NCBI GenBank assembly: GCA_052034935.1
Contig: JBPOIB010000005.1
Span: 16,357-80,356, forward strand
Direction of reading: 5' to 3'
Origin: Candidatus Moraniibacteriota bacterium
GTDB lineage: Bacteria > Patescibacteriota > Minisyncoccia > Moranbacterales > UBA1568
Length of the DNA stretch: 64,000 nucleotides
In this document: piece by piece, positions 6,279-49,168 of the stretch
Layout: the number at the start of each line of letters is the position of its first letter
Numbering within the stretch: position 1 is the stretch's first letter
The notes under the pieces: model-generated
The model's database searches: none
Told to the model about the DNA's origin: nothing
The model's input: the letters and a program-made list of their open reading frames with translations, nothing else
Translations under genes and position numbers: made by a program

Positions 6279-6545
6279 ATGGCTAGTCTCTCAAAGCAGA
6301 AGCTCATTCGTCGACTCAAGATTATCGAGGGTCAGGTCCGTGGCTTACAAGAAATGATTGAAAAGGATGTCTACTGTATTGACGTCATTACCCAGACCTC
6401 AGCGGTGAAGCAGGGGCTGACCGTAATTGAGGACACGATGATGGAAAGTCATCTGGGGAGCTGCGTCATCAAGCAGATCAAGAGCGGAAAAGAACAGAAG
6501 GCAACCGAGGAAATCCTGAAGGTCTATCGGTTGAAAAGAAAATAA
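6279..6545 (+). CDS. csoR: CsoR/RcnR-family metal-sensing transcriptional repressor
   Basis: 88 aa; YCIDVITQTSAV...ESHLGSC matches the C-H-C metal-ligand pattern of the CsoR (DUF156) family. Confidence 0.8.
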   Translation: MASLSKQKLIRRLKIIEGQVRGLQEMIEKDVYCIDVITQTSAVKQGLTVIEDTMMESHLGSCVIKQIKSGKEQKATEEILKVYRLKRK

Positions 6546-6579
6546 GATACCTCGTATATAATTTTGAAAAAATACGCAT

Positions 6580-7143: not shown

Positions 7144-7152
7144 TCCATCGGT

Positions 7153-9438: not shown

Positions 9439-9445
9439 CATCACT

Positions 9446-10465: not shown

Positions 10466-10517
10466 CGTGGTACAGTGTGGGTAATCCGAAAAATAACTTC
10501 CTGATAATCTAAAATAT

Positions 10518-10910
10518 ATGAAAATAACCTTTGGCATTATTCTTGCGGCAGCGATTGGTCTCGTTGGGTACCTGTTCATTCAGTCAGGGGGAGCAAGTTC
10601 AACGAGTGAGGCCCCATCGACGAGCAATGTCAGCATCGTTGATGGGCGGCAGATCGTTGTTCTCTCGGCCAAGGCTGGGTATACCCCAAGGGTGAGCGAG
10701 GTAAAGGCTGGAATTCCGACCATTCTTCGGGTTGAAACCAATGGGACTTTTGATTGTTCGTCCCAGATTCGTGTTCCGAGTCTGAATATTAGCCAGGCTT
10801 TGCCGGCTACGGGAGCGACCGATATTATGCTTGGAAGCCTGGCCGCTGGAAAACTTGATGGCACCTGCGGGATGGGTATGTATCCGTTCCAACTCAATGT
10901 TCAGAGTTAA
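10518..10910 (+). CDS. secreted cupredoxin-like small protein
   Basis: Signal peptide; beta-rich; the C-terminal ...DGTCGMGMYPFQLNV resembles the Cys/Met copper-site region of PF13473-type cupredoxin-like domains. Confidence 0.45.
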   Translation: MKITFGIILAAAIGLVGYLFIQSGGASSTSEAPSTSNVSIVDGRQIVVLSAKAGYTPRVSEVKAGIPTILRVETNGTFDCSSQIRVPSLNISQALPATGATDIMLGSLAAGKLDGTCGMGMYPFQLNVQS

Positions 10911-10913
10911 GGC

Positions 10914-11453
10914 ATGAGCAGGACTTCTTACCTTGTTATTGCCCTTGCTGCCCTCGCTCTCATGGAAGGCGTTGCTTGGACTGTCTGGAAGTCCTCAAAG
11001 GAGGCGCCCGCGCACCAGCCAAGGGCCGATGAGGAATCTGTTCGTAAGGAAACGTCGCAGGATCAGTCTTCTCCGGCGACCCATCTTTCCGAAGTTTCGA
11101 ATCCGAGCTCGTCAGGAACGGAGGATGCTGATTCTGAGAGTTTTCCTCCTCCCACCACTGAAGCAAAGAACGGCCGGACGGAACGGACCATTCATATGGG
11201 AGTTCGTCAGTATGCTTGGGACCCTCCCATCATAAAAGCGAAACAGGGCGAGCTGGTCCGCCTCATTGTCCATAATGCCGATGTTCAGCACGGATTGGTA
11301 ATCCCTGAACTTAACGTATTAAACATTGATATCCCTCCAGATGGGGCAGTGATAGAGTTCGTTCCCGATAAAGTTGGGACGTTTGTGTTTTTTTGCTCCT
11401 ACTACTGCGGCGATGGGCACAGCGAGATGCGTGGAAAAATTATCATTGAATAG
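10914..11453 (+). CDS. cupredoxin-domain protein
   Basis: WDPPIIKAKQGELVRLIVHNADVQHGLVIPELNV...GTFVFFCSYYCGDGHSEMRGKIIIE shows the H...C...H...M type-1 copper-site pattern. Confidence 0.6.
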   Translation: MSRTSYLVIALAALALMEGVAWTVWKSSKEAPAHQPRADEESVRKETSQDQSSPATHLSEVSNPSSSGTEDADSESFPPPTTEAKNGRTERTIHMGVRQYAWDPPIIKAKQGELVRLIVHNADVQHGLVIPELNVLNIDIPPDGAVIEFVPDKVGTFVFFCSYYCGDGHSEMRGKIIIE

Positions 11454-14947: not shown

Positions 14948-16342
14948 ATGAGAGTTCTTTCCATACTGATACTCGTTCTCGTTACGTCTCTTTCGGTACG
15001 GGCCAACACATTTCCGGAAGAAGCCTACTACGAGCGGGTGCTGGCCGAAGAAGCAAACGTGTTCGTCGATTGCGACGCGCTTGAAACGGGGCGTCTGACC
15101 TGTGAGCGGATCAAGACAGCCCGCCGTTTGGCCTACCAGGCCAAGCTGCAGACTTTCGACCAGCTCGAAGGGAAACGCCGCGTGCCGTATCGGGAATTCG
15201 CGCTCATCGTCTATGATCCGGAAACGAAAGGATTCCGCGATCTGCGTCTCGGCATGCCGGTCAATGTCGCCAAGGCACCTCATTTTCAGCCGATCGTCCT
15301 CTCTGGGGACGCGACTGATTGTCAGGTGACGCGGCTTCGTGGCCAGTCGCTCAACAAGATGGTCTTCGATATCGTCTGTGGCGGACGCACGCTTCACGCC
15401 TACGCGGCGAAACATCTGCTCTTTGCCGATGTGAAGCTGCACGCTCTTTGGGGTGGCCGGACGATTCCGCGGACCGAAGAGGTGGTGTACCTCGAGGTCT
15501 CGCCACACTTCGTTTCCGAGGAAACGGCCCGGGCTGGTCAGGCGGTGTTCATGCAGCTCATCGAGCAAGCATTCACCGATTTGCGTGAGCTCGGTGTCCC
15601 GTCACGGTCTTCGCCCGGACGTCTCCTGGCTGACGTCGTCACCGTCGATTCGGTGGCGAACCTCCTGGTCACTGAACAGGCAGATCCGTGCTTCCGGCAA
15701 GGTGAGCGGACGAAAGGCTGCAAGCGTCTCATTCCACAACGGCCCTATCGGGACAATGCAGAGGTGATGCAAGCAGTGAACACGGCCTTCTTCCTGAATG
15801 GCGGTCTCGCGTATCGCTACATGCGTTCGGGCGCTGCTGCGGGCGGGGCGCTCCAGTTCACGAATAACCGTACGAAGCGGTATATCGGGACCTATAATAG
15901 CGTTCTCAAGAACTGTCCCAGCGCCCGGATCGATCCTGACTTCCAGCGAGGGACGCGGAGTATCCGCAATCTGGCCAAGGCGGCAGCGTGTCTCATCGAC
16001 ATGGAGCGGGCGGCGCTTCCTGAATGGGCGCGCGAAGCCTATCACCGCGATCCAGAATTCGGTCTGCCGATTCTCGGCGCCGCCTACAATGGAGGTGCAG
16101 CACGAGCGAGGACAGTGGCCCGGCTCATCGAAACCTTTGCCAAGAAGCATGGAATCAATGAGGAGATGTTCCTCTTCCATCTTTTTCCTTGGGATGAGTT
16201 CCTCGCCTGGATCGATCGGGTCCAGCACGGGCTGCCACCGGAAACGCGCGTGTACATCGAGAAGATCATCGATACAACGCGGCATCTCTATCGGCATCGT
16301 CCGAAAATGCCAGAAGTGAACTTTGAAGGGGCTCTCGGCTGA
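14948..16342 (+). CDS. secreted hypothetical protein; the C-terminal region carries an SLT-like AYNGG motif
   Basis: GGAGGAA RBS before ATG 14948; signal peptide MRVLSILILVLVTSLSVRA. The motif ...ALQFTNN...AAYNGGAARARTV only weakly resembles lytic-transglycosylase motifs. Confidence 0.5.
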   Translation: MRVLSILILVLVTSLSVRANTFPEEAYYERVLAEEANVFVDCDALETGRLTCERIKTARRLAYQAKLQTFDQLEGKRRVPYREFALIVYDPETKGFRDLRLGMPVNVAKAPHFQPIVLSGDATDCQVTRLRGQSLNKMVFDIVCGGRTLHAYAAKHLLFADVKLHALWGGRTIPRTEEVVYLEVSPHFVSEETARAGQAVFMQLIEQAFTDLRELGVPSRSSPGRLLADVVTVDSVANLLVTEQADPCFRQGERTKGCKRLIPQRPYRDNAEVMQAVNTAFFLNGGLAYRYMRSGAAAGGALQFTNNRTKRYIGTYNSVLKNCPSARIDPDFQRGTRSIRNLAKAAACLIDMERAALPEWAREAYHRDPEFGLPILGAAYNGGAARARTVARLIETFAKKHGINEEMFLFHLFPWDEFLAWIDRVQHGLPPETRVYIEKIIDTTRHLYRHRPKMPEVNFEGALG

Positions 16343-16360
16343 GGCCCTTTTTTCTTTGGC

Positions 16361-16389
16361 TTGTCAGCGAAAAGGCGAGTTGGTACTAT
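16361..16389 (+). promoter_or_regulatory. sigma-70-like promoter TTGTCA-17-TACTAT
   Basis: Canonical spacing, upstream of the SET-domain gene. Confidence 0.5.
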
Positions 16390-16436
16390 GTTCAGGTGCC
16401 ACACCCATGTCCGTAGGGACTTTTTTATTACCCCTT

Positions 16437-16883
16437 ATGTCTACGACTAAGCATGTCCGTCCGACCAATGTCGCCGTGAAGCGCTCGAGTGCCGGCCTCG
16501 GGCTTTTTGCCGCCGCTCCCATCAAGAAACGCGAAACTATTATCGAGTACATTGGCCGTCGGATCGCCTCCAAAGACGGAGACGAGCTCGATCAGAACAG
16601 CTATATCTTCACCGTGAATAGCCGGCTTGATATCGATGGTAGCCCCCGCTACAATACGGCGCGCTATGCAAATCATTCTTGCCGGCCGAACGCTGAGTCG
16701 GTCATCCGCAAAGGCCGAGTCTTCATCGTGGCGCTCAAAAATATTCTTCCGGGCGAAGAGATCACCTATGATTATGGCGACGACTTTTTCAAGCATTACA
16801 TCAAACCCTTCGGCTGCAAGTGCGTAAAGTGCATGGCGAAGCGAGAGGAAGACAAGGCTGAGCCTCAAAAGGCGAAGGTGTAG
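16437..16883 (+). CDS. SET-domain protein (putative protein lysine methyltransferase) with post-SET Cys cluster
   Basis: GLGLFAAAPIKKRETIIEYIG, ...RYANHSCRPNAE, GEEITYDYG, and the post-SET CKCVKC. An alternative start is ATG 16407. Confidence 0.75.
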   Translation: MSTTKHVRPTNVAVKRSSAGLGLFAAAPIKKRETIIEYIGRRIASKDGDELDQNSYIFTVNSRLDIDGSPRYNTARYANHSCRPNAESVIRKGRVFIVALKNILPGEEITYDYGDDFFKHYIKPFGCKCVKCMAKREEDKAEPQKAKV

Positions 16884-24805: not shown

Positions 24806-25705
24806 ATGGCCAAAGCAAACTCACAATCAATCAGAAGTTTTCTTGCGAATTCCGGCTATCTCATCCTCGTTTTTGTCTTTGCTTTTGCGATTGCGACTCA
24901 GGCGCTCATGCACAAGATTAATAATTATGAGCTGAATAAGAGTCTTATATTTCTGCTCGTGAAAAAGGAGCGAGTCGATGTATCGACGACAGTAAGCGGT
25001 CGTGTTGAAGAAATTCTTGTGCGCCCGGGAGTCCATGTGAACGAGGGAGATGTGCTGGTCCGTTTGAAAGACGACGGCCGTGAACTCAAGATTGCGGCGC
25101 TTCGCCCGGTGGCTCGCGAGAATCTTTCAGCTCGTACCGAACTAGAGCTGCTTTTATCTCAGGAAAATGAATACGAGCTCCGCGCCCCGCGGTCCGGTGT
25201 CGTAGAGTCGATCTTATCTACCAAGGGGACGACCGTCATCAACGGCGCAGTGGTGCTGATTGTGTATGCTGATGATGAGCTCGAGCTTGTCGGGACAATT
25301 CGACCAGAGCAGTATAATTTGATCGACAAACACCGAAGTATTAGTATCTTCAACCCGCGTCTCGGTCAAGCCTTCACGGCTTCATTCCAGGGGATTACTG
25401 GCGTACGGGATGATCTTCTGCCAGATGGTACGATTGCTCCAATACAGCAGCCGGGTGGTCAGTCGACAAACGACCAGCAGCCAGTGGAGATGTACGAGAT
25501 ACGCTTCGCTCTTAACGAAAAAGAAGAGGGCGCATCCTTTATTGAGGGCGAGCGGCTGGAGGTGATTTCTGAAAATGCCGACATCGAGCAGGAGAAGCCG
25601 ATTTATCGGCTCGCCAAGCTCTGGAACAGCCTCATCCTCGGAACGGACTTCGAATCGCTTCGGAAATATAATGAAGGAAAAAATGATTCTCAAGAATCGC
25701 AGTAA
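24806..25705 (+). CDS. HlyD/membrane-fusion-like protein (single N-terminal TM, lipoyl-like hairpins)
   Basis: VSGRVEEILVRPGVHVNEGDVLVRL and YELRAPRSGVVESI resemble the beta-barrel/lipoyl motifs of periplasmic adaptor proteins. Confidence 0.45.
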   Translation: MAKANSQSIRSFLANSGYLILVFVFAFAIATQALMHKINNYELNKSLIFLLVKKERVDVSTTVSGRVEEILVRPGVHVNEGDVLVRLKDDGRELKIAALRPVARENLSARTELELLLSQENEYELRAPRSGVVESILSTKGTTVINGAVVLIVYADDELELVGTIRPEQYNLIDKHRSISIFNPRLGQAFTASFQGITGVRDDLLPDGTIAPIQQPGGQSTNDQQPVEMYEIRFALNEKEEGASFIEGERLEVISENADIEQEKPIYRLAKLWNSLILGTDFESLRKYNEGKNDSQESQ

Positions 25706-27641
25706 GTGGATCGTGCTCGGAACCGCCGTCCTGGCGGTTCTTTTCTGGCAAGTATTTTCATCGCCAATGAAACCGGAGAGTGAGGTGATTCTCGAGGAAA
25801 AAAAGTTCGCTCCTGAGACGCGTGGCGTACCGCTCCGAACCAATACCTGGTTCTCGAGCCTTTTCTTCCAATTCCCAACCGCTCCGCTCTTTGTCTTCCC
25901 CGGATCATACCAGTTGAATGAGCGCGGCCTCTCGGTCAGCGATTCGAATGCTCTTGGTACGGAAAATACCATCTTCGGGAGCTTTGATCCACTCTGCGAT
26001 ATCGCTGGGCCGTTGCCTCTCACGGGCGTGAAAGTAGAACGGTACGGTGACTGGGATATCGTCGCCCGGGTGATATCGAAAGAGGGAGCAGCCTGGTCAG
26101 CACATTTCATCCAGGGATCGCCGGTCGTCAATATCGGCGACTTCTCAGAACCCCTTTCTTTTTCCTGCAAGCCAGGAATAGAGGTGTCAAACTACCGGAG
26201 CGACACCCTTCTGGCTCGCCAGGGTGACCAGCCGGTATTCCTGGTTCAAGCAGAGAGTCCGATTGCCGAGTCCGGAGGACTCCGTTCAGCTACTGGAAAG
26301 TACCGGATCATCCAGGTACCAAAAGAGACGGCCCAGCCTCTCGATTTTTTCCTCGATCTTCCCTGGGTGACCATACTCGATACGCAGTATGCGACATCGG
26401 ATCGGGATGGCTTCTTGCATACGCAGCTCGTGACCGTGACCGGAGATGACGAGCCTATTCTCATGACACTCTGGCCGCATCATCGTCTCGGCGGTGCCGA
26501 AATTCGGGGTGAACAGTTGGGGAGTTACTCCACGGTCTATGGTCGGCTGGATCTGCAACTCTCGAATCGGATTGATATTGAAACAGCCAAGCCAAAGCTT
26601 GTAACCGGCTTCTCGCCCGTCTCTGGCCAGAAGTCAGTCGAAGAAATACGCTCGGCGGTGAAAGAGGATACTGCTCGCTATCTGTCCGAGACGATACCGG
26701 GCGGAGTTTACTTCCGTGGTACCTGGCTCGGTGGTCTCGCGAGCGTCATCCAGTTGGCTGAAGCCTATGGAATGGACGAAGAGGAGCGAGTATTGCTTGA
26801 TCTTCTGGAGCGCCAGCTTCGGAGTTCACTCGTCGACTTTGCCTATAGCGAAGAAAAAAAGATGTTCATCGCTTCGAAAAATTCCGAATTCGGCAATGAG
26901 AAGGGGAACGACCATCACTTCCACTACGGTTACTACCTGCGCTCAGCCGCGGTTTTGTTCGATGCCCGTCCGGCTGCGGGCGATGACTTGAAAGCGATCC
27001 TCGATGAGATGGCACTCGATATCGCGAATAGCGACCGGTCATCGGAACGCTACCCTTTTCTCCGTCACTTCTCACCGTACGCCGGACACTCGTGGGCGGA
27101 CGGGGAAGCGCTTTTCCAAGATGGGAACAATCAGGAATCATCATCGGAAGCGATGAATGCCTGGTACGGGCTGTATCTCTGGGGGAAATCGACTGACAAT
27201 AGTCGTCTTACGAAGATCGCCACAGGCCTCTATACCAATGAACTCCTCGGCCTCCGGAGCTACTGGTTCGGCGAAGGGAATCCATTTCCGACAGGATTTG
27301 AGCATCCGCTCGTTTCGCTCGTGTGGGGCGGGAAACGCGATTATGCGACCTGGTTCAGTGGGGACCCGATGCATATCCAAGGGATTCAGTGGCTACCCAT
27401 CACGCCGGCATCCGAGTATCTCGGAACGTTGCCGAATCAGCCGGAACGGATGAGGGATCTCGGTCTGGATCCTTCCGCGGCCGCGGACCATGAGTGGGGC
27501 GACCTCTATATCGCGTACCTTTCCTCTTTTGACCCGGTCGAAGCGGCGAAGCATCTCGACACTGCCTCAAAACGCCAAGCAATCAAATCGAAAGCGTTGC
27601 TGTATCATGTCGTCCTGATGAATCTGGAAAACAGGCGGTAG
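25683..27641 (+). CDS. GH81-like endo-beta-1,3-glucanase, membrane-anchored/extracytoplasmic
   Basis: AAGGA RBS; N-terminal TM. ...NDHHFHYGYY... and ...NQESSSEAMNAWYGLYLWG match, from memory, the GH81 catalytic motifs (Asp in DHHxHYGY; ExxxE pair). Confidence 0.5.
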   Translation: MILKNRSKWIVLGTAVLAVLFWQVFSSPMKPESEVILEEKKFAPETRGVPLRTNTWFSSLFFQFPTAPLFVFPGSYQLNERGLSVSDSNALGTENTIFGSFDPLCDIAGPLPLTGVKVERYGDWDIVARVISKEGAAWSAHFIQGSPVVNIGDFSEPLSFSCKPGIEVSNYRSDTLLARQGDQPVFLVQAESPIAESGGLRSATGKYRIIQVPKETAQPLDFFLDLPWVTILDTQYATSDRDGFLHTQLVTVTGDDEPILMTLWPHHRLGGAEIRGEQLGSYSTVYGRLDLQLSNRIDIETAKPKLVTGFSPVSGQKSVEEIRSAVKEDTARYLSETIPGGVYFRGTWLGGLASVIQLAEAYGMDEEERVLLDLLERQLRSSLVDFAYSEEKKMFIASKNSEFGNEKGNDHHFHYGYYLRSAAVLFDARPAAGDDLKAILDEMALDIANSDRSSERYPFLRHFSPYAGHSWADGEALFQDGNNQESSSEAMNAWYGLYLWGKSTDNSRLTKIATGLYTNELLGLRSYWFGEGNPFPTGFEHPLVSLVWGGKRDYATWFSGDPMHIQGIQWLPITPASEYLGTLPNQPERMRDLGLDPSAAADHEWGDLYIAYLSSFDPVEAAKHLDTASKRQAIKSKALLYHVVLMNLENRR

Positions 27642-28851: not shown

Positions 28852-29598
28852 ATGCTGCTTCTCTTAGTTTTCTCATTTCTCTCGGGGGTGGCGATGATTT
28901 TCGCACCTTGTGTCTGGCCTATCCTGCCGATTATCTTTTCGGCGAGCGTTACTGGTGATCGCCGCCGTCCGTTAGCAGTAATCGCGGGACTCACTCTCGC
29001 CTTTCTCGTTTCGATACTGGGCTTCGTGTATCTTTTCCGTATCTTGCCGTTTAGTTATGACGGACTGCGACTGCTTTCGGTCGCGGTAATTACTTTTTTC
29101 GGCCTCCTCCTGGTCTTCCCGTCTTTGGGGATAAAGATGGAGGTCGTGCTTTCGCGATACGTCAGTCGGCAGGGCAGCGGGCAGACGGGCCGCGGCCGGA
29201 TTTCCGGTTTCGCTACGGGAGTATCACTCGGGTTTCTTTGGTCGCCGTGCATCGGTCCGATTCTGGCAACCGTCGCGAGTGCTGCGGCGACCCGGGCAAT
29301 ATCCTGGGAAATCACTCTGGTCGCTTTTGCTTTTACTTTCGGCCTTGCCTTGCCGCTTCTGCTCATCTCTTGGCTGGGCCAGCGCTTCCTCGGCACAAAT
29401 CGCTTTTTTCGTCCATTTCTACCGGTTCTCCGCCGTGGCTTTGGACTCCTCATGCTTCTCATGGCGCTCGCTATCTATTTTGACTATGACAAGGACCTTC
29501 AGGCAGCGTTCGTCGATGAATATCCGGTCTGCAGCATCAACGACTCTATCCAGGCCAGACCTGATGTGCTTGAGGCCCTGAGAATGATTGGCCGATAG
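28852..29598 (+). CDS. ccdA: CcdA/DsbD-family thiol-disulfide transmembrane electron transporter
   Basis: The two conserved Cys sit in ...FAPCVWPILP... and ...LWSPCIGPILA..., with 6-8 TM helices. Confidence 0.8.
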   Translation: MLLLLVFSFLSGVAMIFAPCVWPILPIIFSASVTGDRRRPLAVIAGLTLAFLVSILGFVYLFRILPFSYDGLRLLSVAVITFFGLLLVFPSLGIKMEVVLSRYVSRQGSGQTGRGRISGFATGVSLGFLWSPCIGPILATVASAAATRAISWEITLVAFAFTFGLALPLLLISWLGQRFLGTNRFFRPFLPVLRRGFGLLMLLMALAIYFDYDKDLQAAFVDEYPVCSINDSIQARPDVLEALRMIGR

Positions 29599-29643
29599 CG
29601 GTGTTGGAACCGGAATCATTTTTTGGTATACTGGTATACAAGT

Positions 29644-30387
29644 ATGTCAAAACAGAAAGCTCCACTCGCCATATCATTTCTCCTCCTCGGGTCAGCGATG
29701 CTCATCCTGGCGGGCTGCTCGTGGAAGAATGAACCGGCCGCGATGGGAGAGAAAACCGAAGAGCTTCCGCTCGACAAACTGAAGCGGGCTGAGACTGATC
29801 AGACCCTGGCCGAAGAATCAAAACAAAAAACCTCGACGAAACCAGTAACCCCCTCAAATACCTCGCCTATGACTGCCAAACAGTATCCTACCGCCCCAGC
29901 CCTTTCGATCGATGCAGCCAAGAAGTATGTCGCGACGCTCCGGACAGAGAAGGGCGACATCGAGATCGAACTTGCGGCGAGCGCGACACCGACAACGGTG
30001 AACAACTTCGTCTTTCTCGCCCGTGAGAAGTTCTATGACGGGGTCATTTTCCATCGGACGATTCCTGGCTTCATGATCCAGGGCGGAGATCCGACCGGAA
30101 CGGGGATGGGCGGCCCGGGCTACCAATTCGCTGATGAAGCTTTTTCCGGGTCTTATGACCGCGGTACGGTTGCGATGGCGAATGCTGGTCCCAATACCAA
30201 TGGCAGTCAGTTTTTCATCATGCACGCTGACTACGCACTACCGAAGAACTACGTGATTTTCGGCAAGGTAACCAAGGGTCTCGAAGCGGTGGATGCAATC
30301 GCGACGGCGCCGACCCAGGCTGGTGGCGAAGGTTCCAAACCGGTTACTCCGGTGAAAATTCTTTCAGTCGATATCCTAGAGCAGTAG
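29644..30387 (+). CDS. cyclophilin-type peptidyl-prolyl cis-trans isomerase, lipoprotein
   Basis: Lipobox LILAGCS; FHRTIPGFMIQGGDP, GTVAMANAGPNTNGSQFFI. Confidence 0.85.
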   Translation: MSKQKAPLAISFLLLGSAMLILAGCSWKNEPAAMGEKTEELPLDKLKRAETDQTLAEESKQKTSTKPVTPSNTSPMTAKQYPTAPALSIDAAKKYVATLRTEKGDIEIELAASATPTTVNNFVFLAREKFYDGVIFHRTIPGFMIQGGDPTGTGMGGPGYQFADEAFSGSYDRGTVAMANAGPNTNGSQFFIMHADYALPKNYVIFGKVTKGLEAVDAIATAPTQAGGEGSKPVTPVKILSVDILEQ

Positions 30388-39262: not shown

Positions 39263-41014
39263 ATGCATCAATTTATCCGAGAAAATCCAGGCAGCATCGC
39301 TCTTCTTACACTCCTCATTATTGGGCTTTTATGGCACCAACCGTGGCCGTATATTCTAGCAATTCTCGCAGGACTAGTTATTCTCGGCATCCAGTCCTGG
39401 GAGCGGATCAGGATACGGAAGTGGGACCTCGACTATATCGCGCTTCTCGCATTGACCACGTCGCTCTTCCTTGGCGAATGGCTGGCTGGTGCGATTATTG
39501 CGCTCATGATTTCTCTTTCGCGGGCGCTCGAGAATTACGGTTCGCGCCGAGCCGAAGCATCGCTCGAGGAGCTTTTCCGTCTGCTCCCCAAAGCAGCGCT
39601 CGTGAAACGGGGAGAGGGATTTGTCGAGGTGCCACTTCAAGAAATCGGGGTCGGCGAGACGATTTCGGTCCGACATCGCGAAATGGTACCGCTCGATGGG
39701 ACGCTTTCTGCCTTTGGGGGGCTTTTCAGTGAAGCGAATCTGACGGGCGAGATGGAGCCAGTCGAGTATCGATCAGGCGCGCGGCTCAGGAGCGGTATCG
39801 TGAATATGGGCGAAGCAGTTGAGGTGATGGTTGTGGGGGACTTCAGTCACTCGACGTATCAAAGCATGCTCTCGATCGTGAGCGAAGGAAAGCGGGAACC
39901 ATCTTCGCTGGTCCGGCTGGCTGGTCGGCTCAATTGGCCGTTCACCATTGTCACCATCGTTCTTTCTGTGGGTGCCTACCTTATTACTGGGGATATGGAA
40001 CGTTTTCTTGCCGTCCTCGTCGTTGCGACGCCGTGCCCGCTTCTTATTGCTGCTCCGATTGCCTTTCTCGGTGGACTTTCCAAGGCGGCACGACGTCAGG
40101 TCATCATCAAGACACCAGAAACGCTTGAGCGTCTCGCCAAGGCAACGACGATTTTTTTTGATAAAACAGGTACTCTCACGCTCGGCATCCCGAAGCTTCA
40201 AAAAGTCGAGCTGCTTGATCAGCGGTTTTCAGAGAGGGATGCTCTCGCTCTTGCTTCGGCGCTTGAAGAACATTCACTGCATCCGATTGCTCGGGCCCTG
40301 GTATTCGCGAATCGCGAGAAGAGTGGGGACGACCTTGATGCGGCTGATGTCACGGAAAAGCTCGGTGAAGGTATCAAGGGGAGTATCGCTGGGAAGAAGT
40401 ATCGCATCGAGAAGAGCGTTTCTGATTCTGGGATGGCCGTAGTGCTCGCCCAAGACGAGGGACCAATTGCCCGTTTTGTTTTCGATGACGTACCGAAACC
40501 AGGCATCGAAGCGACGTTTGACTATCTGCGTAAGCGAGGACTGAAGCTTTCCGTACTCACCGGTGACAAAGAAGTGAATGCACATCGAGTTCTCGATCGG
40601 TATGGACTCGATATCATCGCTGATTGTGATCCAGAGCGGAAAATGGCAGTTGTTGAGGAGGCGAAGAAACGGGGCGAGATTGTGATTATGGTCGGTGATG
40701 GTGTGAACGATGCACCAGCACTCGCTCTTGCGGATGTCGGGGTCGTCTTTTCTGGTACGGAAAACAGCCTCTCTCTCGAAGCAGCCGATGCGGTCATCCT
40801 AAAGCGGGATATCGGCCTTTTCCAGGAAACCATCCATATCAGCCGTCGCTCGTACCGGATTGCCCGGCAAAGTATGGTTCTTGGTATCGGACTCTCATTT
40901 CTTGGCATGCTTGCCGGCGCATTCGGCTATCTGCCGCCGGTGCACGGAGCGATTCTCCAGGAGGTGATCGACGCGCTCGTTATCGTGAATGCCGTCCGCG
41001 CTGCGTATCGCTAG
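39263..41014 (+). CDS. short P1B-like P-type ATPase (no N-terminal metal-binding domain; PCP motif)
   Basis: TGE, ATPCPLLIAAP (TM6 CPx-like), DKTGTLT, GDGVNDAPAL; 583 aa. Confidence 0.8.
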   Translation: MHQFIRENPGSIALLTLLIIGLLWHQPWPYILAILAGLVILGIQSWERIRIRKWDLDYIALLALTTSLFLGEWLAGAIIALMISLSRALENYGSRRAEASLEELFRLLPKAALVKRGEGFVEVPLQEIGVGETISVRHREMVPLDGTLSAFGGLFSEANLTGEMEPVEYRSGARLRSGIVNMGEAVEVMVVGDFSHSTYQSMLSIVSEGKREPSSLVRLAGRLNWPFTIVTIVLSVGAYLITGDMERFLAVLVVATPCPLLIAAPIAFLGGLSKAARRQVIIKTPETLERLAKATTIFFDKTGTLTLGIPKLQKVELLDQRFSERDALALASALEEHSLHPIARALVFANREKSGDDLDAADVTEKLGEGIKGSIAGKKYRIEKSVSDSGMAVVLAQDEGPIARFVFDDVPKPGIEATFDYLRKRGLKLSVLTGDKEVNAHRVLDRYGLDIIADCDPERKMAVVEEAKKRGEIVIMVGDGVNDAPALALADVGVVFSGTENSLSLEAADAVILKRDIGLFQETIHISRRSYRIARQSMVLGIGLSFLGMLAGAFGYLPPVHGAILQEVIDALVIVNAVRAAYR

Positions 41015-43559: not shown

Positions 43560-44186
43560 CTATTCATCTTTGCAAAAGGGGAAAGTTGATGATGCTTGAT
43601 ACATCCTTACCCTCTCGCAAGCATCGTAGCCGTAGCCGTCCCTGAGCCCGATGTTCGCTCCATGCTGTACCAGAAAGGATGCAGCCCGTTCATTTTTTTG
43701 AATAATGAAATCGGTGAGAATAGTAAGGTATCTTTTCTGATCGCCTTCCGCCCTGGCATTTGGATCGGCACCATAACTGATGAGTTTCTCAGCCAGGGAA
43801 AAATCATTGAGATTGAGGCTCTGCTCGAGCGGCGTCAACCCTTGTCCATTGGGAATATTCGGGTTTGCGCCCAGCACAAGGAGCGGCTCAACTAATGAGG
43901 TATTCCAATTGATGGCGTAGAGAAGCGGGCTGTTGCCGAATCGGTCGAGACTGTCGATATCTGCCCCGCTCGCCTTTAGAGAAGTGATTCTTTCAGCACT
44001 GCCTTCTTTGACGGCGCAGTGATACGGCATGATAGTGCAGTCGAGCTCGGCCTGTTTCCGGAGCTTGGCAAAGTTCCGATTTTCAGTCGCGTGATAGGAG
44101 TATCCGAAAGCGATGAAAAAAACTCCGGCGAGTATGGCGACTGTGGCCGCTATGACCAGCCCTCGGATGAGCAGATGCCTCCACAT
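43560..44186 (-). CDS. membrane-anchored ankyrin-repeat protein
   Basis: N-terminal TM; 3-4 ANK repeats (GADIDSLDRFGNSPLLYAI; GANPNIPNGQGLTPLEQSL; GADPNARAEGD...; GANIGLRDGYGYDA). Confidence 0.7.
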   Translation of the reverse strand: MWRHLLIRGLVIAATVAILAGVFFIAFGYSYHATENRNFAKLRKQAELDCTIMPYHCAVKEGSAERITSLKASGADIDSLDRFGNSPLLYAINWNTSLVEPLLVLGANPNIPNGQGLTPLEQSLNLNDFSLAEKLISYGADPNARAEGDQKRYLTILTDFIIQKNERAASFLVQHGANIGLRDGYGYDACERVRMYQASSTFPFCKDE

Positions 44187-44191
44187 AGAAT

Positions 44192-45382
44192 TTATTTGTA
44201 CCGCAGCGCATCGAGGGCATCGATGTGGCTCGCTTTGCGAGCGGGGAAGACACCGGTCATGAAGCCGACGAAAGCACCGAAGCCGATGACCGTCATGACG
44301 AACCAGAGCGGCGAGTAGAAGAGCGAAACAGCCTCGCCACCGAAGCGGGTTGCGACCGCATTAATGAGGACATTGATGATGAAACCGCCGACCCAGCCGA
44401 TACCGACTCCGCCGACGGCACCGAGGAAGCCCATGAGAGTGGATTCCATCACGAACATGAGCGAGATATCCGATTTGGAAGCACCGATCGCCTTCATGAT
44501 GCCGATTTCTTCGGTCCGTTCGAGCAAAGTGATAGTCATGGTGTTGAACATACCGATGGCGGAAACGATGAGGGCGATCATGCCGAAGACCATGAGGACG
44601 AGCTGGATGGCCCGGAAGACCTTGTTCGCCTGGTCGATGGTTTCGGAGATGGACGAAGCGGTGAGCCCGAGCGCAGCGACGGCCGTCCGGACCGGCTCGA
44701 CGACATCGGTTGAAACGCATTTCACCTTAAGCTTGGTGTATTGTTCGATCACAAAGGCAGTACCAATCGATTCGAGCGGAATATAGACGATGTTCTCGGC
44801 GCCATCGGCGATACCGACGATCGTGTAGGCCTCACCGAGGCCGACCGAGGTGCCGCGTCCGGCCGCGTCCGGATTCGTGAAAAGCGTCAGCGCCATCGAT
44901 CGGCCGAGCATTTCCTCCGGACTGACGCCGAAGACTTGGGAGACAGCCTTGGTGATGACGATTTCTCGGACATTTCCCTTGTCGAAAAGCCGGCCGTTCT
45001 CGATCTTCAGCCCCTCGCTTTTCAGGAAACTCTGGCCGGTCGAAACGGTGGAGACATCGAGTGTGATGTTGTCGTAGCGGCCCTGGCCCGCCAGTTCGAG
45101 CGCCGGGATGACATCGATGACATCGGGAATCTGGCCGAGCTTGTCTATCGTTTCCTGGTTGAGAAGCGCGTTCTTGTCTTCGCCGAGAGTGACATCGAGC
45201 GAGACGAGCGCGTCAGAGGTAGTGATCTTCTGGAGGAGGGTGCGCTGCAGTCCGTAGCCGAAGGAGACGAGGAACATGATCGCCGAGATGCCGACCGACA
45301 TGCCGAGAATAGTCAGCAGGGTCCGCATCGTGCGGGCCTTGAACATACGGAGCGACAGTTTGAGAACATCAAAAAAGCGCAT
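44192..45382 (-). CDS. FtsX/MacB-type ABC transporter permease
   Basis: N-terminal TM, large extracytoplasmic domain, C-terminal 3-TM FtsX fold. Confidence 0.8.
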   Translation of the reverse strand: MRFFDVLKLSLRMFKARTMRTLLTILGMSVGISAIMFLVSFGYGLQRTLLQKITTSDALVSLDVTLGEDKNALLNQETIDKLGQIPDVIDVIPALELAGQGRYDNITLDVSTVSTGQSFLKSEGLKIENGRLFDKGNVREIVITKAVSQVFGVSPEEMLGRSMALTLFTNPDAAGRGTSVGLGEAYTIVGIADGAENIVYIPLESIGTAFVIEQYTKLKVKCVSTDVVEPVRTAVAALGLTASSISETIDQANKVFRAIQLVLMVFGMIALIVSAIGMFNTMTITLLERTEEIGIMKAIGASKSDISLMFVMESTLMGFLGAVGGVGIGWVGGFIINVLINAVATRFGGEAVSLFYSPLWFVMTVIGFGAFVGFMTGVFPARKASHIDALDALRYK

Positions 45383-45384
45383 AC

Positions 45385-46731
45385 TTAGCTGTATTTGAGG
45401 AGCATGATGATTTCAATCTCGCGAGTCATCTTTTCAACTGTATCGCGGCGGAGTCCGACGCCCCCCTGGATGAACGACTTGTCGAGTTTGCGCGAGAGTT
45501 CGATCTGGCCGATCGCACTTTCGAGCCGGAGTTTCAAAGCGGCCTGGAGCCGGAGTCGGGCCTCGTCGTTTATCTTGAGCCGGAATTCACGCTCGAGATA
45601 GGCGCCGAGCTTGAGCGCACCCTCTTCGGTCGTTGTCCGAAGTGCCTGGGTGATAGCGAGGATATCCTCGACCCGTTTGGCGAATCTCATTGCGCGGAGC
45701 TTGTTCCAGCCAGCGCCGCCCTGGTCGAGTTCGAGGTCAAGTCGTTCGGTGAAGAGCGGCACGTCGATATTCTTGAAGAGGAGTTCTTTCAGGAAGGCTT
45801 CAGCCATCGAGACCTGCTCGTCGTTGAGTTCGGAGAGGAGGTGGGCGAGGAGTTGTTTCGCCTTAAACGGGATGAGGAGCATATCCACCTGCTGTGGCAG
45901 GAGGTTCTTGAAGGAATTCATGAGGATCTTCAGTTCGCTATTCTCTTCCTTTTCCTCCGTGAGGAAGTCCTCCATCTTCTTCTCCTTCAAGATCGGACGT
46001 TTCTCCTTGAAGACCTGCTCTTTGATGACGCGGCCGTCCTTCATGTGGATGACGCGGTCGGCATAGACGAGATGATCCGGGTTATGGGTCACCATGATGA
46101 TCGTCTTCTTGTCGATATCATTGAGCTCCTTCAGGATGTCGAGCACGTTCTGGGCCGATTCGGAGTCGAGGTTGCCAACCGGCTCGTCCGCGAGGATGAT
46201 GTCAGGATTGTTCATGAGAGAGCGAGCAATGGCGACACGCTGCTTCTGGCCGCCGGAAAGCTGGTTCGGCATCTTGTCGCCCTGTTCGGCGATGCCGAAA
46301 CGGCGCAGCAATGAAAAGCCGTCCTTTTTGCGAACCGCCGGCGTTTCGCCGCGGAACACGCGCGGGAGGCAGACATTGTCGAGAATATCGAGCGACGAGA
46401 TGAGGTAGAAAGCCTGGAAAACCATGCCGAGCGTGCTCTGGTGGAGGTCGAGTGTCTGGCGTTCATCCATCTTTGAGATCGACTGCCCTTTGATGTAGAC
46501 ATCGCCGTACGTGGCTGATTGGAGGCCGGAGATCGAGTAGAGGAGTGTGGACTTCCCGCAGCCGGAGGGACCGAAAATAATCACGTATTCATGGGGATAA
46601 ATCGTGAGATTTGTCTCTTCGAGCGCGCGCATCTCATTGGGTTTCCCCTGATTGTAGATGATGCGCAGTTTGTCGATGACGATGAGAGGTTCCGTGCCCG
46701 CTACTGGGACGGCCGGAGAAGTTTCAGGCAT
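45385..46731 (-). CDS. ABC transporter ATP-binding protein (MacB/FtsE-like) with a ~200-aa C-terminal helical extension
   Basis: GPSGCGKSTLL, LSGGQKQRVAIARSL, ILADEP. Residues ~235-448 are K/E/L-rich with no known motif. Confidence 0.8.
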   Translation of the reverse strand: MPETSPAVPVAGTEPLIVIDKLRIIYNQGKPNEMRALEETNLTIYPHEYVIIFGPSGCGKSTLLYSISGLQSATYGDVYIKGQSISKMDERQTLDLHQSTLGMVFQAFYLISSLDILDNVCLPRVFRGETPAVRKKDGFSLLRRFGIAEQGDKMPNQLSGGQKQRVAIARSLMNNPDIILADEPVGNLDSESAQNVLDILKELNDIDKKTIIMVTHNPDHLVYADRVIHMKDGRVIKEQVFKEKRPILKEKKMEDFLTEEKEENSELKILMNSFKNLLPQQVDMLLIPFKAKQLLAHLLSELNDEQVSMAEAFLKELLFKNIDVPLFTERLDLELDQGGAGWNKLRAMRFAKRVEDILAITQALRTTTEEGALKLGAYLEREFRLKINDEARLRLQAALKLRLESAIGQIELSRKLDKSFIQGGVGLRRDTVEKMTREIEIIMLLKYS

Positions 46732-46994
46732 GCGTATTTTTCTCTAGCATATCATATTTCAGGCTTGATTGGAGCGCTTTTCTGTACCTCGCGGTGCTCT
46801 TTCGGTATGATGGAGACATCATGATGAACATCTCAACGAAAACCATCATCGTGGTCGGCATTGTTCAGTCCATTGTCCTCACGCTTATGCTGATCCTCTT
46901 TTTCCAGTATCAGCGAATGCTCGAAGCAGAGAATGTACAGACTGAGACCGAGTTCCGGCCGGAAACAAGCCGATAATCTTCTTATACACGGTAT

Positions 46995-47762
46995 ATGGAA
47001 AACGTCATCCAGACTCTCGGTCCGATCCTCCGCCATGTTTATCGCCTGCACGATATGGCGAGCGATTTCCTTGCCAAGCACGTTTTTACAGTAAAGAAGG
47101 GAATCCTTGTCCTTGCCCACCTCTCGCTCTTCGGATTCTTTTTCCCTGAGTTACGTAAGGACTTCGGCGAACTGGCCGCTAATCTCCTCATCGCGCTCCT
47201 CTTTCTCAGTCCGCTATCAAAGATCTTCCGGATGCGACTCCTCCTCCAGGGGATGATGCTTCGCCGCGAGCTCGGCATCATAATGGGCTATCTGGCGACG
47301 GTCCATGGCGTCGGCTACCTCATCGATCCTGACTGGTTCGAATATATCGTGGTGCCAGTCCTAGCGGGGAATTTTTGGGGCGAAGACCCGCGTTACATCT
47401 TCGGACTTCTCGCTTATGCGCTGACTTTGCCGCTCCTCTTTACTTCGAATGCTCTTTCTCAGCGCCTGCTCGGTCCGAAGTGGAAACTTCTGCATCGAAC
47501 AGTCTACCTCATGTTCGTCTTCGCTATCCTCCATCGGTTCATCGTGAAGGAGATGACGCCGATCGCACTTGCCGAAGCGGGTATACTGATCGGTTCTTAC
47601 ATCGGGGCAAAAGCACTGGCCTGGAGGAACTTTCTGCCGCCCTTGGTCGAGGCAATCCGTCTCATAGCCGAAGACTATCGTCGCTCCAAGACGTTGGCGC
47701 CTGCCGAAGCATCTCCGGTTGAGAATTCTCCCCGCGGCCCGCAAGGACCGATTGTCTCCTAG
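46995..47762 (+). CDS. ferric-reductase-like transmembrane (YedZ/MsrQ-type) b-haem membrane protein
   Basis: 6 TM; His pair in WKLLHRTVYLMFVFAILH (H-x13-H) plus additional His in earlier helices. Confidence 0.55.
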   Translation: MENVIQTLGPILRHVYRLHDMASDFLAKHVFTVKKGILVLAHLSLFGFFFPELRKDFGELAANLLIALLFLSPLSKIFRMRLLLQGMMLRRELGIIMGYLATVHGVGYLIDPDWFEYIVVPVLAGNFWGEDPRYIFGLLAYALTLPLLFTSNALSQRLLGPKWKLLHRTVYLMFVFAILHRFIVKEMTPIALAEAGILIGSYIGAKALAWRNFLPPLVEAIRLIAEDYRRSKTLAPAEASPVENSPRGPQGPIVS

Positions 47763-47824
47763 AGTGCGGCCACTCTCAGAGTTTGGTATACTGGAAAGGC
47801 TAATTTTTCACTGCTCTATTTCGT

Positions 47825-48661
47825 ATGGATGAGATGAAGTCTCCAGTCGAAGCGGACATCCAGTCTGCTTCGGGAAGCTGTTGTTCAAACAAGGGCTCTT
47901 GCAATTGTGCAGGAACAAAGGAAGAGAAAGGTGCTTGGATCGTCGCCGGAGCCGTTCTCTTGGCCGGCCTCATGGTGACGGCAGGCATCCTGGTTTCGAT
48001 GAAGCCGGGCGTTTCTACGGGCACACCAGCGCCATCCGCCGCACCGACCGCAGCTAATCCGTCAGGCGAAAAGGCCGGTCCTCAGATGGCCAAGGTCTCG
48101 CTTGATGATGACGCGGTAATGGGGGATCGGAAGAAAGCGAAAGTCGCCATTATCGAATTCAGCGACTTCGAGTGCCCATTTTGCCAGAAGTTCCATAAGG
48201 ATACCTATGACACCCTGGTGAAGGACTATGTTGACACAGGCAAAGCGGTCATCTCCTTCCGGGACTATCCGCTCCCATTTCATGAGCCGAAAGCGAGTCT
48301 TGCGGCCAATCTCGCACAGTGCGTCAAGGAAGCGAAAGGGGATGTGGCCTACTTCAAGTTCTCCAAGCTGTATTTCGAGAATACCGTCTCGAACGGCAAG
48401 GGTGTAGCGGACGAGAAGATGAATGAGATTCTCCAGCAGGCTGGCGTGAATGCGACGAGCGTCAAAGACTGCGCGACCAAAGAGAAATTCAAGGATGAAA
48501 TCGCCAAGGACATGGCTGACGGCCAGGCGGTCGGAGTCAATGGCACCCCATCGTTTATCATCGGTAAGCTCTCTGCTGATGGTATGGTTGATGGCGAAGT
48601 TGTCGTTGGCGCCCTCCCGCTCGCTCAGTTTAAGTCGACGGTCGACAAATATCTCAAGTAA
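47825..48661 (+). CDS. DsbA-family thiol:disulfide oxidoreductase, membrane-anchored, with N-terminal Cys-rich segment
   Basis: CPFC active site in ...EFSDFECPFCQKFH; thioredoxin fold. N-terminal ...SGSCCSNKGSCNCAG followed by a TM. Confidence 0.75.
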   Translation: MDEMKSPVEADIQSASGSCCSNKGSCNCAGTKEEKGAWIVAGAVLLAGLMVTAGILVSMKPGVSTGTPAPSAAPTAANPSGEKAGPQMAKVSLDDDAVMGDRKKAKVAIIEFSDFECPFCQKFHKDTYDTLVKDYVDTGKAVISFRDYPLPFHEPKASLAANLAQCVKEAKGDVAYFKFSKLYFENTVSNGKGVADEKMNEILQQAGVNATSVKDCATKEKFKDEIAKDMADGQAVGVNGTPSFIIGKLSADGMVDGEVVVGALPLAQFKSTVDKYLK

Positions 48662-48682
48662 GACCGCTTACTTTTGGTGAGA

Positions 48683-48712
48683 ACCGCTCCGTCATACGAG
48701 CGGTTTTCTTTT
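48683..48712 (+). terminator. Rho-independent terminator after the dsbA-like gene
   Basis: aaccgctc-cgtcatac-gagcggtt followed by ttcttttg. Confidence 0.7.
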
Positions 48713-48726
48713 GCTTACAATGCGAA

Positions 48727-48757
48727 AAGAAAAAGCTCCCAACAAGGGAGCTTTTTA
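48727..48757. terminator. bidirectional terminator (serves rplT on the minus strand)
   Basis: An A-run, then agctccc-aacaa-gggagct, then ttttat. Confidence 0.7.
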
Positions 48758-48775
48758 TCGAAGATTGAGAAGTAC

Positions 48776-49168
48776 TTATTTGCTAGTGACGGCCTCTTTT
48801 TTCTCCTCTACCTTTCCAGATTTCCCGAGGACGTTCTTGACGAGAGCAGTGAAGACGGCTGGGTTCTCTACGGCCATTTCTGAGAGAACTTTGCGGTCGA
48901 GGGCGATGGATTTGGTCTTCAGAAAAGCAATGAATTTAGCATAGCTCGTGCCGTTCTCTCGGAGAGCATTGTTGAGGCGGACGATCCAGAGGGCGCGGAA
49001 GGTGCGCTTCTTGGCTCGGCGGTCACGGCGAGCGTACTTCCCAGCCTTGATGACGGCTTCCTTGGCTTTCGTGAAGAGCTTTTTGCGGCCCCAGCGGTAG
49101 CCTTTAGCCTTCTTCAGGATGTTGTTGTGGCGCTTTTTGGTCATTACGCCGCGCTTGACTCGGGACAT
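48776..49168 (-). CDS. rplT: 50S ribosomal protein L20
   Basis: [28 protein letters not shown] is the canonical L20 N-terminus. Confidence 0.9.

Follow-up and report, generated by a model that had tools for sequence, protein, structure and literature searches.

An MsrQ/STEAP-type ferric-reductase-domain protein and a DsbA-like protein apparently form a conserved, co-transcribed unit in Candidatus Moranbacteria

Ferric-reductase-domain (FRD) proteins are modular reductases of metals and oxygen (PMC8238504). Those of the MsrQ (YedZ) type carry one b haem plus FMN, and STEAP likewise has an Arg at the inner-haem position; E. coli MsrQ, with potentials of ~-250 mV for the haem and ~-340 mV for the FMN, binds ubiquinone, a possible acceptor of its electrons (PMC12525009). 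On the thiol side, the closest described systems are the pairs MdbA-VKOR (Actinobacteria, many CPR bacteria) and BdbD-BdbC (Bacillus), and the DsbD/CcdA/ScsB pathways (CcdA-ResA, ScsB-ScsC, CcdA-Etrx-MsrAB), among which ScsC is a DsbA-fold protein kept reduced by its membrane partner. VKOR is common in CPR bacteria generally, and the MdbA-like family is enriched in them and thought to fold pilins (PMC6744442). How DsbA is regenerated in bacteria without DsbB or VKOR is a recognised, unsolved question: MauE, a third DsbA-oxidant enzyme, was proposed only in 2026, and ~20% of the surveyed species have none of DsbB, VKOR and MauE. Here we describe a locus in which an FRD gene is paired with a gene for a DsbA-like protein. 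We consider this FRD-DsbA module real and, as far as could be found, not described before; literature searches turned up nothing specific on an FRD-DsbA link, on VKOR or DsbA in Patescibacteria/CPR, or on AOX in Moranbacteria.

The window analysed is the whole 64,000-nt stretch of Candidatus Moraniibacteriota contig JBPOIB010000005.1 (assembly GCA_052034935.1, positions 16,357-80,356, forward strand), whose source lineage is Candidatus Moranbacteria (CPR), a lineage of tiny, uncultured bacteria. On the plus strand, the unit starts with a small single-TM protein (51 aa, 46821..46976, core motif GIVQSIVLTL...FF), followed by the FRD membrane protein (255 aa, ~6 TM segments, 46995..47762) and, after a 62-nt intergenic spacer (47763..47824), by a membrane-anchored DsbA/MdbA/BdbD-like thiol-disulfide oxidoreductase (278 aa, 47825..48661). 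Our analysis confirmed the two larger reading frames and the gap between them as given in the initial annotation. The spacer holds no terminator-like hairpin, and the sole such site within 46600-48900, an 11-bp stem with a T-run downstream (48679..48718, plus strand), lies 18 nt past the DsbA stop codon; FRD and DsbA form a conserved, apparently co-transcribed unit. Divergently transcribed on the minus strand is a MacB-type ABC transporter (44192..46731), comprising by family match an FtsX/MacB_PCD permease (44192-45382) and an ABC ATPase extended by ~200 aa at its C-terminus (45385-46731), a conserved neighbour that keeps its position in most related loci, FRD-less ones included.

The pairing recurs far beyond chance expectation: of the 47 informative species-level Moranbacteria genomes that carry FRD, 43 have a DsbA-like gene downstream of it in the same orientation, bearing out the association proposed from the window alone, and FRD stands without an adjacent DsbA in the other four. 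This order is kept across ~40-74% protein identity, with FRD identity reaching down to ~40%, and the flanks downstream of the pair vary (XseA versus rplT-infC). Sister genomes carry DsbA alone, or DsbA together with a middle protein (MID, described below), and in loci L057 and L068 DsbA orthologues occupy the same position without FRD; FRD is therefore an optional accessory, not an obligatory partner of DsbA. Moreover, since a backbone of ABC transporter, small TM gene and dsbA persists without FRD, inherited synteny may account for some of this conservation. What speaks for a coupling of FRD and DsbA is gene order in a single lineage, and it is possible, if doubtful, that no direct coupling exists and that FRD is a stand-alone outward reductase of ferric or cupric ions or of oxygen (STEAP or bacterial NOX/Fre-like) that merely shares locus and transcript with an envelope-maintenance DsbA. 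The occurrence of each gene without the other and the FRD-independent conservation of the transporter/dsbA backbone are consistent with such a role, as are the modular nature of FRD proteins as metal and oxygen reductases (PMC8238504) and a P1B heavy-metal ATPase that is a frequent neighbour (39263-41014 in the window, and in other loci). However, FRD and MID, distinct genes that are each optional, occupy the identical insertion point before dsbA, all three genes lie on one strand and either overlap or are closely spaced, their order is retained over the identity range given above, and the operon itself includes no metal transporter. We also correlated FRD with DsbA distances in a mirror-tree comparison, in which the ABC and FtsX genes served as controls. 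The values were low and erratic, a weak signal in keeping with a stand-alone FRD, and the approach was discarded because even two transporter subunits correlated at just r = 0.06.

The FRD protein matched the Pfam Ferric_reduct model (PF01794; 1.5e-11, above the cut-off) and has the six-TM haem-binding fold, with STEAP and NOX as the nearest folds. Alignment with E. coli MsrQ placed its predicted outer haem ligands H104 and H180 at MsrQ H91 and H164, and the FMN-site residues R90, R91, L147, S151, W163 and H167 at R77, R78, L131, S135, W147 and H151; all eight MsrQ cofactor residues have a counterpart, and these positions are retained in 46-48 of the 48 family members (the two haem ligands in 48/48). 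The RR motif, the TM3 His, L...S, W...H and the H-x12-H spacing are shared as well, and the protein belongs to the same FRD subgroup as MsrQ. The initial annotation had proposed a YedZ/MsrQ-type dihaem protein. The aligned cofactor residues uphold the MsrQ type and the dihaem assignment falls, as R90, invariant in the family, occupies the position of the NOX inner-haem His (13-14 residues before the outer ligand), and the alignment contains no second His pair for an inner haem, the Arg being found there as in MsrQ (R77) and STEAP. By sequence, the protein is of the MsrQ/STEAP type, with one predicted outer haem and a predicted inner FMN site. Like MsrQ, it is a membrane subunit on its own, not fused to a dehydrogenase, and it is encoded ahead of a candidate extracytoplasmic redox partner. 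Unlike MsrQ, it falls below the NCBIfam equivalog score (55.3 bits, cut-off 130) and so outside MsrQ proper, has an extra N-terminal region with the clade-specific residues H19, D20 and H42, and has no MsrP molybdoenzyme nearby, the downstream gene encoding a thioredoxin-fold DsbA-like protein instead.

Relatives give a hint at the direction of electron transfer. The nearest FRD proteins outside Moranbacteria occur with rubredoxin or ferredoxin and an FNR module (FAD_binding_6 plus NAD_binding_1), as fusions or as neighbours, which implies outward flow. In contrast to STEAP and to these NOX-like FRD-rubredoxin/ferredoxin-FNR fusions, the window protein lacks a cytoplasmic NAD(P)H-binding module, and no cytoplasmic reductase partner for it is encoded nearby. 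The low potentials of E. coli MsrQ likewise favour electron donation over acceptance from DsbA. Finally, the window protein contains no cysteine at all and the 48 homologues share no conserved Cys column, which makes a DsbB-like thiol relay by FRD impossible.

MID, a protein of ~410 aa, is encoded between FRD and DsbA in 17 of the 43 FRD-DsbA genomes (of 47 informative) and is absent from the window. It combines an external Grx-like CxHC thioredoxin-fold domain with a Cys-bearing, putative CcdA-like membrane domain and has seven invariant cysteines, the intramembrane ones lying in NPC and C-x4-P motifs; in loci L056 and L059 the FRD and MID genes overlap by 4 nt. JGI labels MID as CcdA/glutaredoxin, a protein type known to export reducing power. 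Its position directly before the DsbA-like gene, together with an external CxxC domain and intramembrane Cys (17/47 related genomes), recalls the DsbD/CcdA/ScsB pathways; unlike these, the window locus lacks such a protein, and MID itself has a CxHC active site and a membrane domain without a match among Pfam models. The CxHC motif is similar to CPHC, the oxidising motif of DsbA, which counts against a reductive role. An apparent FRD-MID fusion in locus L031, a would-be Rosetta stone, was rejected as an artefact of a masked N run.

The reading that we prefer, tentatively and at somewhat less than an even chance, is that of a Moranbacteria-specific envelope redox operon in which FRD would serve as an accessory reductive electron feed to DsbA-centred thiol machinery, not as a DsbB-like sink. 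The operon would run from the small TM protein via the MsrQ-type flavocytochrome b (and MID in many relatives) to the anchored DsbA-like protein. One b haem would lie near the outer face (H104/H180) and the FMN near the cytoplasmic face (R90, R91, S151, W163, H167). Electrons would enter FRD from a putative cytoplasmic NAD(P)H/flavin reductase, be carried outward as in MsrQ, STEAP and NOX, and leave the outer haem as reducing equivalents for the DsbA-centred thiol-disulfide machinery, either directly, through MID in those relatives that have it, or with O2 or a metal ion as a small acceptor at that site. FRD may in this way provide a thioredoxin-independent supply for extracytoplasmic cysteine reduction, isomerisation or repair, a counterpart of MsrQ-MsrP with a thioredoxin-fold protein in place of the molybdoenzyme. 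Potentials such as those of the E. coli MsrQ haem (~-250 mV) and FMN (-340 mV) are low enough for reducing a DsbA-type disulfide. On the other hand, haem is a one-electron centre, and we know of no precedent for the direct reduction of a CxxC disulfide by haem; the lack of a cysteine for exchange in FRD and a DsbA sequence nearer to oxidases also speak against a reductive feed. The initial annotation had left open whether a haem-based route would reoxidise or reduce the DsbA-like protein. Reduction is the better fit, and reoxidation is disfavoured by the missing cysteines, the low MsrQ potentials and the outward-flow relatives.

The DsbA-like protein matched the Pfam models Thioredoxin_4 (3e-28, 99 bits) and DSBA (2e-15, 57 bits), and a homologue search returned only close Moranbacteria relatives. 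Its CPFC active site occupies residues 117-120 (nt 48173-48184) and its cis-Pro loop, GTP, lies at residue 240, both motifs being spanned by alignments to 3f4r and 4pwo; C166 and C216 form a second Cys pair. Hydropathy indicated a single hydrophobic segment, the TM anchor at residues 37-59 (nt 47933-48001), with no other TM, and from this lone N-terminal anchor we infer that the DsbA domain is extracytoplasmic. An N-terminal cluster of C19, C20, C26 and C28 (residues 19-28, nt 47879-47908) precedes the anchor and would therefore be cytoplasmic. The CPFC site and the CC...C.C cluster are thus both present as annotated, and the cluster, variable among orthologues and probably cytoplasmic, drops out of the proposed periplasmic pairing. 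It was also rejected as a core feature, as it is confined to close relatives and missing from many orthologues, in loci with and without MID alike.

Among solved chains, those closest to the DsbA-like protein were 3f4r, 4pwo, 7unn and BdbD 3eu3, with 1e-12 to 1e-15 for 4pwo (which has the identical EFSDFECPFC motif) and 3eu3; ScsC-type proteins matched more weakly (1e-6 to 1e-7). These comparisons place the protein closer to 4pwo, BdbD and 3f4r, which are known oxidases, than to ScsC, a reductase/isomerase, and the earlier premise that DsbA needs a membrane oxidant holds insofar as its closest matches are oxidases that require one. Like MdbA-VKOR and BdbD-BdbC, the locus encodes a TM-anchored Thioredoxin_4/DSBA protein with a membrane redox neighbour in a monoderm-type cell; unlike VKOR and BdbC, FRD is not a four-helix Cys/quinone enzyme and has haem/FMN ligands in place of Cys. 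Kinship with partner-dependent oxidases, including the motif common to 4pwo, and the CPR-enriched MdbA-like family with its presumed role in pilin folding (PMC6744442) would fit FRD in the role of membrane oxidant for DsbA, standing in for DsbB, VKOR or MauE with little or no need of quinone. Electrons would then run from reduced DsbA (through a MID Cys relay in genomes that have one) to the outer haem, to FMN and on to an acceptor in the cytoplasm or membrane, such as a bound quinone, the nearby AOX-like oxidase or O2. We regard this as unlikely; a DsbB-like oxidant role of FRD is possible but not favoured. Where MID is present, its CxHC, the extra Cys pairs and the tight coupling to FRD would form a DsbB-like relay, and the eight-Cys secreted domain found in the same operon in some genomes also fits, as do the acknowledged gaps in DsbA reoxidation pathways and the ubiquinone bound by E. 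coli MsrQ as a possible electron acceptor (PMC12525009). However, the window version has neither MID nor a cysteine in FRD, outward flow is suggested both by the potentials of the FRD family and by its NOX-like relatives, DsbA orthologues occur without FRD, many CPR genomes carry VKOR (PMC6744442), and no precedent is known for the oxidation of a thiol by haem unless a flavin or quinone lies on that side of the membrane.

The search for canonical partners bears on the same role. Pfam scans of ~45 ORFs revealed no DsbB, VKOR, MauE or MsrP in the 64-kb window, where only two HMA-domain proteins among the multi-TM ORFs contain CxxC, and ~0.9 Mb of related loci likewise held no DsbB, VKOR or MauE, in line with a substitute oxidant. 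The absence of a visible DsbB or VKOR, noted initially, thus stands for the window, just ~6% of a ~1 Mb genome; that of an MsrP partner holds more widely, Oxidored_molyb being found neither among the scanned window ORFs nor among the called genes of any related locus examined. Most CPR bacteria are not known to make quinones or haem, and the initial annotation had stressed reduced or absent quinone biosynthesis. An AOX-like quinol-oxidase homologue 6 kb downstream of the unit weakens this premise and at the same time offers an oxidant FRD a possible outlet; as a member of the unit the AOX-like gene was rejected, being syntenic only in near relatives of the window. The wider form of the proposal, in which FRD (alone or with MID) would be the terminal acceptor that reoxidises an MdbA-like DsbA, providing a fourth disulfide route independent of DsbB, VKOR and MauE and suited to quinone-less cells, appears improbable.

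Outward flow and an oxidase-like DsbA would be reconciled if FRD were a NOX-like source of extracellular superoxide or peroxide that serves as the DsbA oxidant, so that outward flow drives oxidative folding. STEAP1 and NOX do reduce O2, and peroxide-driven oxidation of PDI is known in the ER. However, this scheme is purely inferential, would be costly and damaging in a cell with few detoxification systems, and sits poorly with the anoxic habitats of many Moranbacteria; we consider it very improbable.

Returning to the reductive feed that we prefer, the FRD-DsbA operon may connect thiol chemistry at the cell surface with the electron supply of the cell in a way not described before, and it offers a concrete, clonable candidate for a new oxidative route or, more likely, for a surface route of reduction or repair that does not depend on thioredoxin. 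Either route, if true, would extend the partner range of MsrQ/STEAP proteins from molybdoenzymes and metals to thioredoxin-fold proteins, and would mean that minimal Moranbacteria cells obtain haem and flavin to serve a function in the envelope.

The small TM protein that opens the unit was called as a gene on an identical Logan contig. A motif HMM identified it as the single match in the entire window (7.5e-12) and recovered an equivalent small-TM ORF directly upstream of FRD in 38 of 54 Moranbacteria loci; the gene was also found in the FRD-less locus L068. In loci L002 and L030, the N-terminus of the small TM protein bears an eight-cysteine-cluster domain (TIGR04289).

The forward strand of the window carries an ORF of 255 aa (46995-47762; Pfam Ferric_reduct, 1.5e-11) encoding a ferric-reductase-domain membrane protein (FRD), followed after 62 nt by an ORF of 278 aa (47825-48661) encoding a membrane-anchored thiol-disulfide oxidoreductase that matches Thioredoxin_4 (3e-28) and DSBA (2e-15). 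ORF calls and Pfam matches thus confirmed the initial annotation of this pair as a Ferric_reduct-type gene and, 62 nt further on, a DsbA-type gene with a CPFC site. The spacer contains no terminator-like hairpin, the sole such structure in the region lying at 48679-48708, 18 nt past the stop codon of the DsbA-like ORF. All close homologues bearing a name belong to Candidatus Moranbacteria (CPR/Patescibacteria). Upstream of the pair, an unannotated protein of 51 aa with a single TM helix and the motif GIVQSIVLTL...FF is encoded at 46821-46976 (+). A profile HMM of this motif matched nowhere else in the whole window, and it retrieved an equivalent ORF directly 5' of FRD in 38 of 54 Moranbacteria loci as well as in L068, a relative's locus devoid of FRD. 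In two relatives (L002, 5611-5991; L030, 2119-2508), the N-terminus of the small protein is extended by the eight-cysteine-cluster domain TIGR04289, plausibly a substrate of a disulfide catalyst.

Surveying one genome per GTDB species yielded 50 loci encoding this FRD clade (39-74% identity), all from Moranbacteria-type MAGs. Duplicate contigs and one truncated contig were set aside, and stop-to-stop frames of the remaining loci were searched with profile HMMs. In this set, FRD is followed by DsbA in 26 loci, by a ~410-aa middle protein (MID) and then DsbA in 17 (17/47), and has no DsbA within 10 kb in four. Throughout, the FRD, MID and DsbA genes are co-oriented and either lie a short distance apart or overlap, as FRD and MID do by 4 nt in L056 and L059. 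The 3' flank differs, with XseA in many loci and rplT-rpmI-infC in the window's subclade, and the FRD-DsbA unit is kept. Look-ups starting from DsbA or MID homologues revealed two more arrangements of the same backbone: MID-DsbA lacking FRD in L057 (complete genome CP064989), and DsbA alone in L068. This backbone consists of a P1B ATPase gene and divergent FtsX and ABC genes, then the small TM gene and dsbA; FRD and MID are optional inserts 5' of dsbA. Judging by gene order, a functional link between FRD and a DsbA-centred thiol machinery is likely. Orthologous dsbA genes without FRD, and FRD without dsbA, argue against obligatory coupling and point to an alternative that we consider possible if rather unlikely, namely that FRD acts on its own as a reductase of metals or oxygen, at a locus shared with DsbA but without direct coupling to it.

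The P1B-type heavy-metal ATPase, a recurring neighbour of the ABC/FRD/DsbA block, is short (583-589 aa) and lacks an HMA domain (39263-41014 (+) in the window, 974-2743 in L003, and likewise at many other loci). The MacB/LolD-like ABC ATPase (45385-46731 (-)) is kept beside the dsbA locus in almost every relative and bears an uncharacterised helical C-terminal extension of ~200 aa. Many contigs (L007, L008, L012, L013, L016 and others) are titled 'uncultured Bdellovibrionales bacterium', their gene content is clearly Moranbacteria-type, and their FRDs are 55-72% identical to that of the window; one homologue is titled 'Undibacterium sp.'. Both titles are probably taxonomic mislabels of MAGs.

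MID, a highly conserved protein whose family exceeds 3000 homologues, is encoded either between FRD and DsbA or, where FRD is missing, 5' of DsbA (e.g., L002:6736-7959; L056:8001-9242; L059:1605-2816), and is not encoded in the 64-kb window. It comprises a signal/anchor helix, an external thioredoxin/glutaredoxin-fold domain whose active site is invariably C-x-H-C, a linker in which two cysteines are invariant, and a polytopic membrane domain matching no Pfam model. In this last domain, FNPC and C-x4-P motifs placed at predicted helix breaks contribute invariant cysteines, and a loop contributes one more, for a total of seven in MID. The window itself encodes a stand-alone CcdA/DsbD_TM protein of 248 aa (28852-29598 (+)), directly followed by a membrane-anchored cyclophilin-type prolyl isomerase of 254 aa; the two (28852-30387 (+)) are possibly an envelope folding pair. 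The cyclophilin occurs without CcdA in 13 related loci.

The DsbA-like protein displays CPFC at residues 117-120 and a GTP cis-Pro loop, along with one hydrophobic anchor (37-59) and a second Cys pair (166/216). Its nearest solved structures are 3f4r, 4pwo, 7unn and Bacillus BdbD (3eu3), at 1e-12 to 1e-15, versus 1e-6 to 1e-7 for ScsC-type proteins. Of these, 3f4r is Wolbachia alpha-DsbA1, and 4pwo, a Corynebacterium diphtheriae protein deposited as DsbA, has an identical EFSDFECPFC motif. Given the nearest structures and Méheust et al., an oxidase-like DsbA in need of a partner is a reasonable premise. The N-terminal CC...C.C cluster noted in the initial annotation is present (cysteines 19, 20, 26 and 28); it precedes the anchor and would therefore be cytoplasmic, occurs only in near relatives of the window and a few others, independently of MID, and is not a core feature.

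The best NCBIfam match of FRD was MsrQ, at 55 bits versus an equivalog cut-off of 130, and E. coli MsrQ aligned with it at a probability of 95.5% in a profile comparison. The numbering of the E. coli sequence used fits every residue cited in PMC12525009. FRD residues R90/R91, H104, L147/S151, W163, H167 and H180 align with R77/R78, H91, L131/S135, W147, H151 and H164, respectively. In E. coli MsrQ, H91/H164 ligate a single outer b haem (about -250 mV), the remaining aligned residues forming the cytoplasmic pocket for FMN (about -340 mV; PMC12525009). These positions are kept in 46-48 of 48 Moranbacteria-clade FRDs, and alignment and conservation together identify FRD as a predicted MsrQ/STEAP-type flavocytochrome, neither a dihaem NOX-type protein nor an MsrQ equivalog. 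The dihaem assignment made initially was thus not borne out, the residues matching the one-haem-plus-FMN MsrQ type. H19, D20 and H42 (nt 47049-47054, 47118-47120), located in the N-terminal helix/extension and TM1, are nearly invariant within the clade and missing from MsrQ and out-group FRDs; these residues may make up an additional site for a metal or haem.

An exhaustive profile search returned only 34 clusters (50% identity) at E <= 1e-30, so the FRD clade is small. The next relatives, at 30-40% identity and none with a DsbA neighbour, are stand-alone FRDs or FRDs joined to, or encoded beside, rubredoxin or ferredoxin together with FAD_binding_6 and NAD_binding_1 (P0418, P0443, L061, L067); the latter group are putative NAD(P)H-driven outward electron carriers. 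Out-group FRD genes in L061 (2811-3932), L067 (5983-7446) and L062-L066 adjoin rubredoxin and FNR-like genes. Under table 11, ORFs in several L061-L067 contigs are badly fragmented, suggesting that these CPR-like organisms use an alternative genetic code (e.g., UGA as sense).

As to the direction of electron flow, we tentatively favour FRD as an accessory feed that would carry electrons outward, i.e., reductively, toward the DsbA-centred thiol machinery. Among characterised FRD proteins, electron flow is known only in the outward direction; MsrQ has low potentials, NAD(P)H modules occur in the nearest FRD relatives, and the other optional insert, MID, resembles a DsbD/CcdA-type exporter of reducing power. 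Moreover, FRD lacks cysteines for taking electrons from a dithiol, none being conserved among the 48 clade members and the window's copy having zero. That FRD instead serves as a DsbB-like electron sink would fit the oxidase-like character of the DsbA-like protein, the oxidising-type CxHC motif of MID, ubiquinone binding by E. coli MsrQ (PMC12525009), an AOX-like gene close by, and the fact that DsbB, VKOR and MauE were not seen in the sampled DNA (the 64-kb window and relatives' loci of up to 20 kb); however, CPR bacteria in general use VKOR (Méheust et al.), and we deem this role unlikely. A role as a NOX-like oxidant generator appears highly improbable. The AOX-like di-iron protein (54625-55308 (+), 227 aa; Pfam AOX, 33 bits vs cut-off 22.7) keeps its syntenic position in near relatives of the window (L006, L010, L013 and L056); one would not expect a quinol-type terminal oxidase in a CPR lineage believed to have neither quinones nor respiration.

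Our literature search found no paper connecting an FRD/MsrQ-like protein with a DsbA. In an eLife 2021 survey (PMC8238504), the partners reported for MsrQ-like modules are flavinylated proteins and iron transporters, not thioredoxin-fold proteins, and a 2026 MauE preprint holds that more oxidative-folding pathways are still to be found. The present case is best filed as a putative carrier of the MsrQ type whose partner belongs to another class, in one CPR lineage only and with a partnership inferred from synteny only.

Elsewhere, the window harbours a metal-handling cluster (2560-2976 and 6279-11453 (+)) that includes a DUF305 protein, a CsoR-like repressor and a CopA-like P-type ATPase with an HMA CxxC motif (both by sequence reading only), an HMA-DsbD_2 fusion protein (9446-10465) and two cupredoxin/COX2-like membrane-anchored proteins (10518-10910, 10914-11453). 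Eukaryote-like domains in this CPR genome are represented by a SET-domain protein (16323-16883), a GH81 (beta-1,3-glucanase family) protein (25575-27641) and a membrane-anchored ankyrin-repeat protein (43560-44186).
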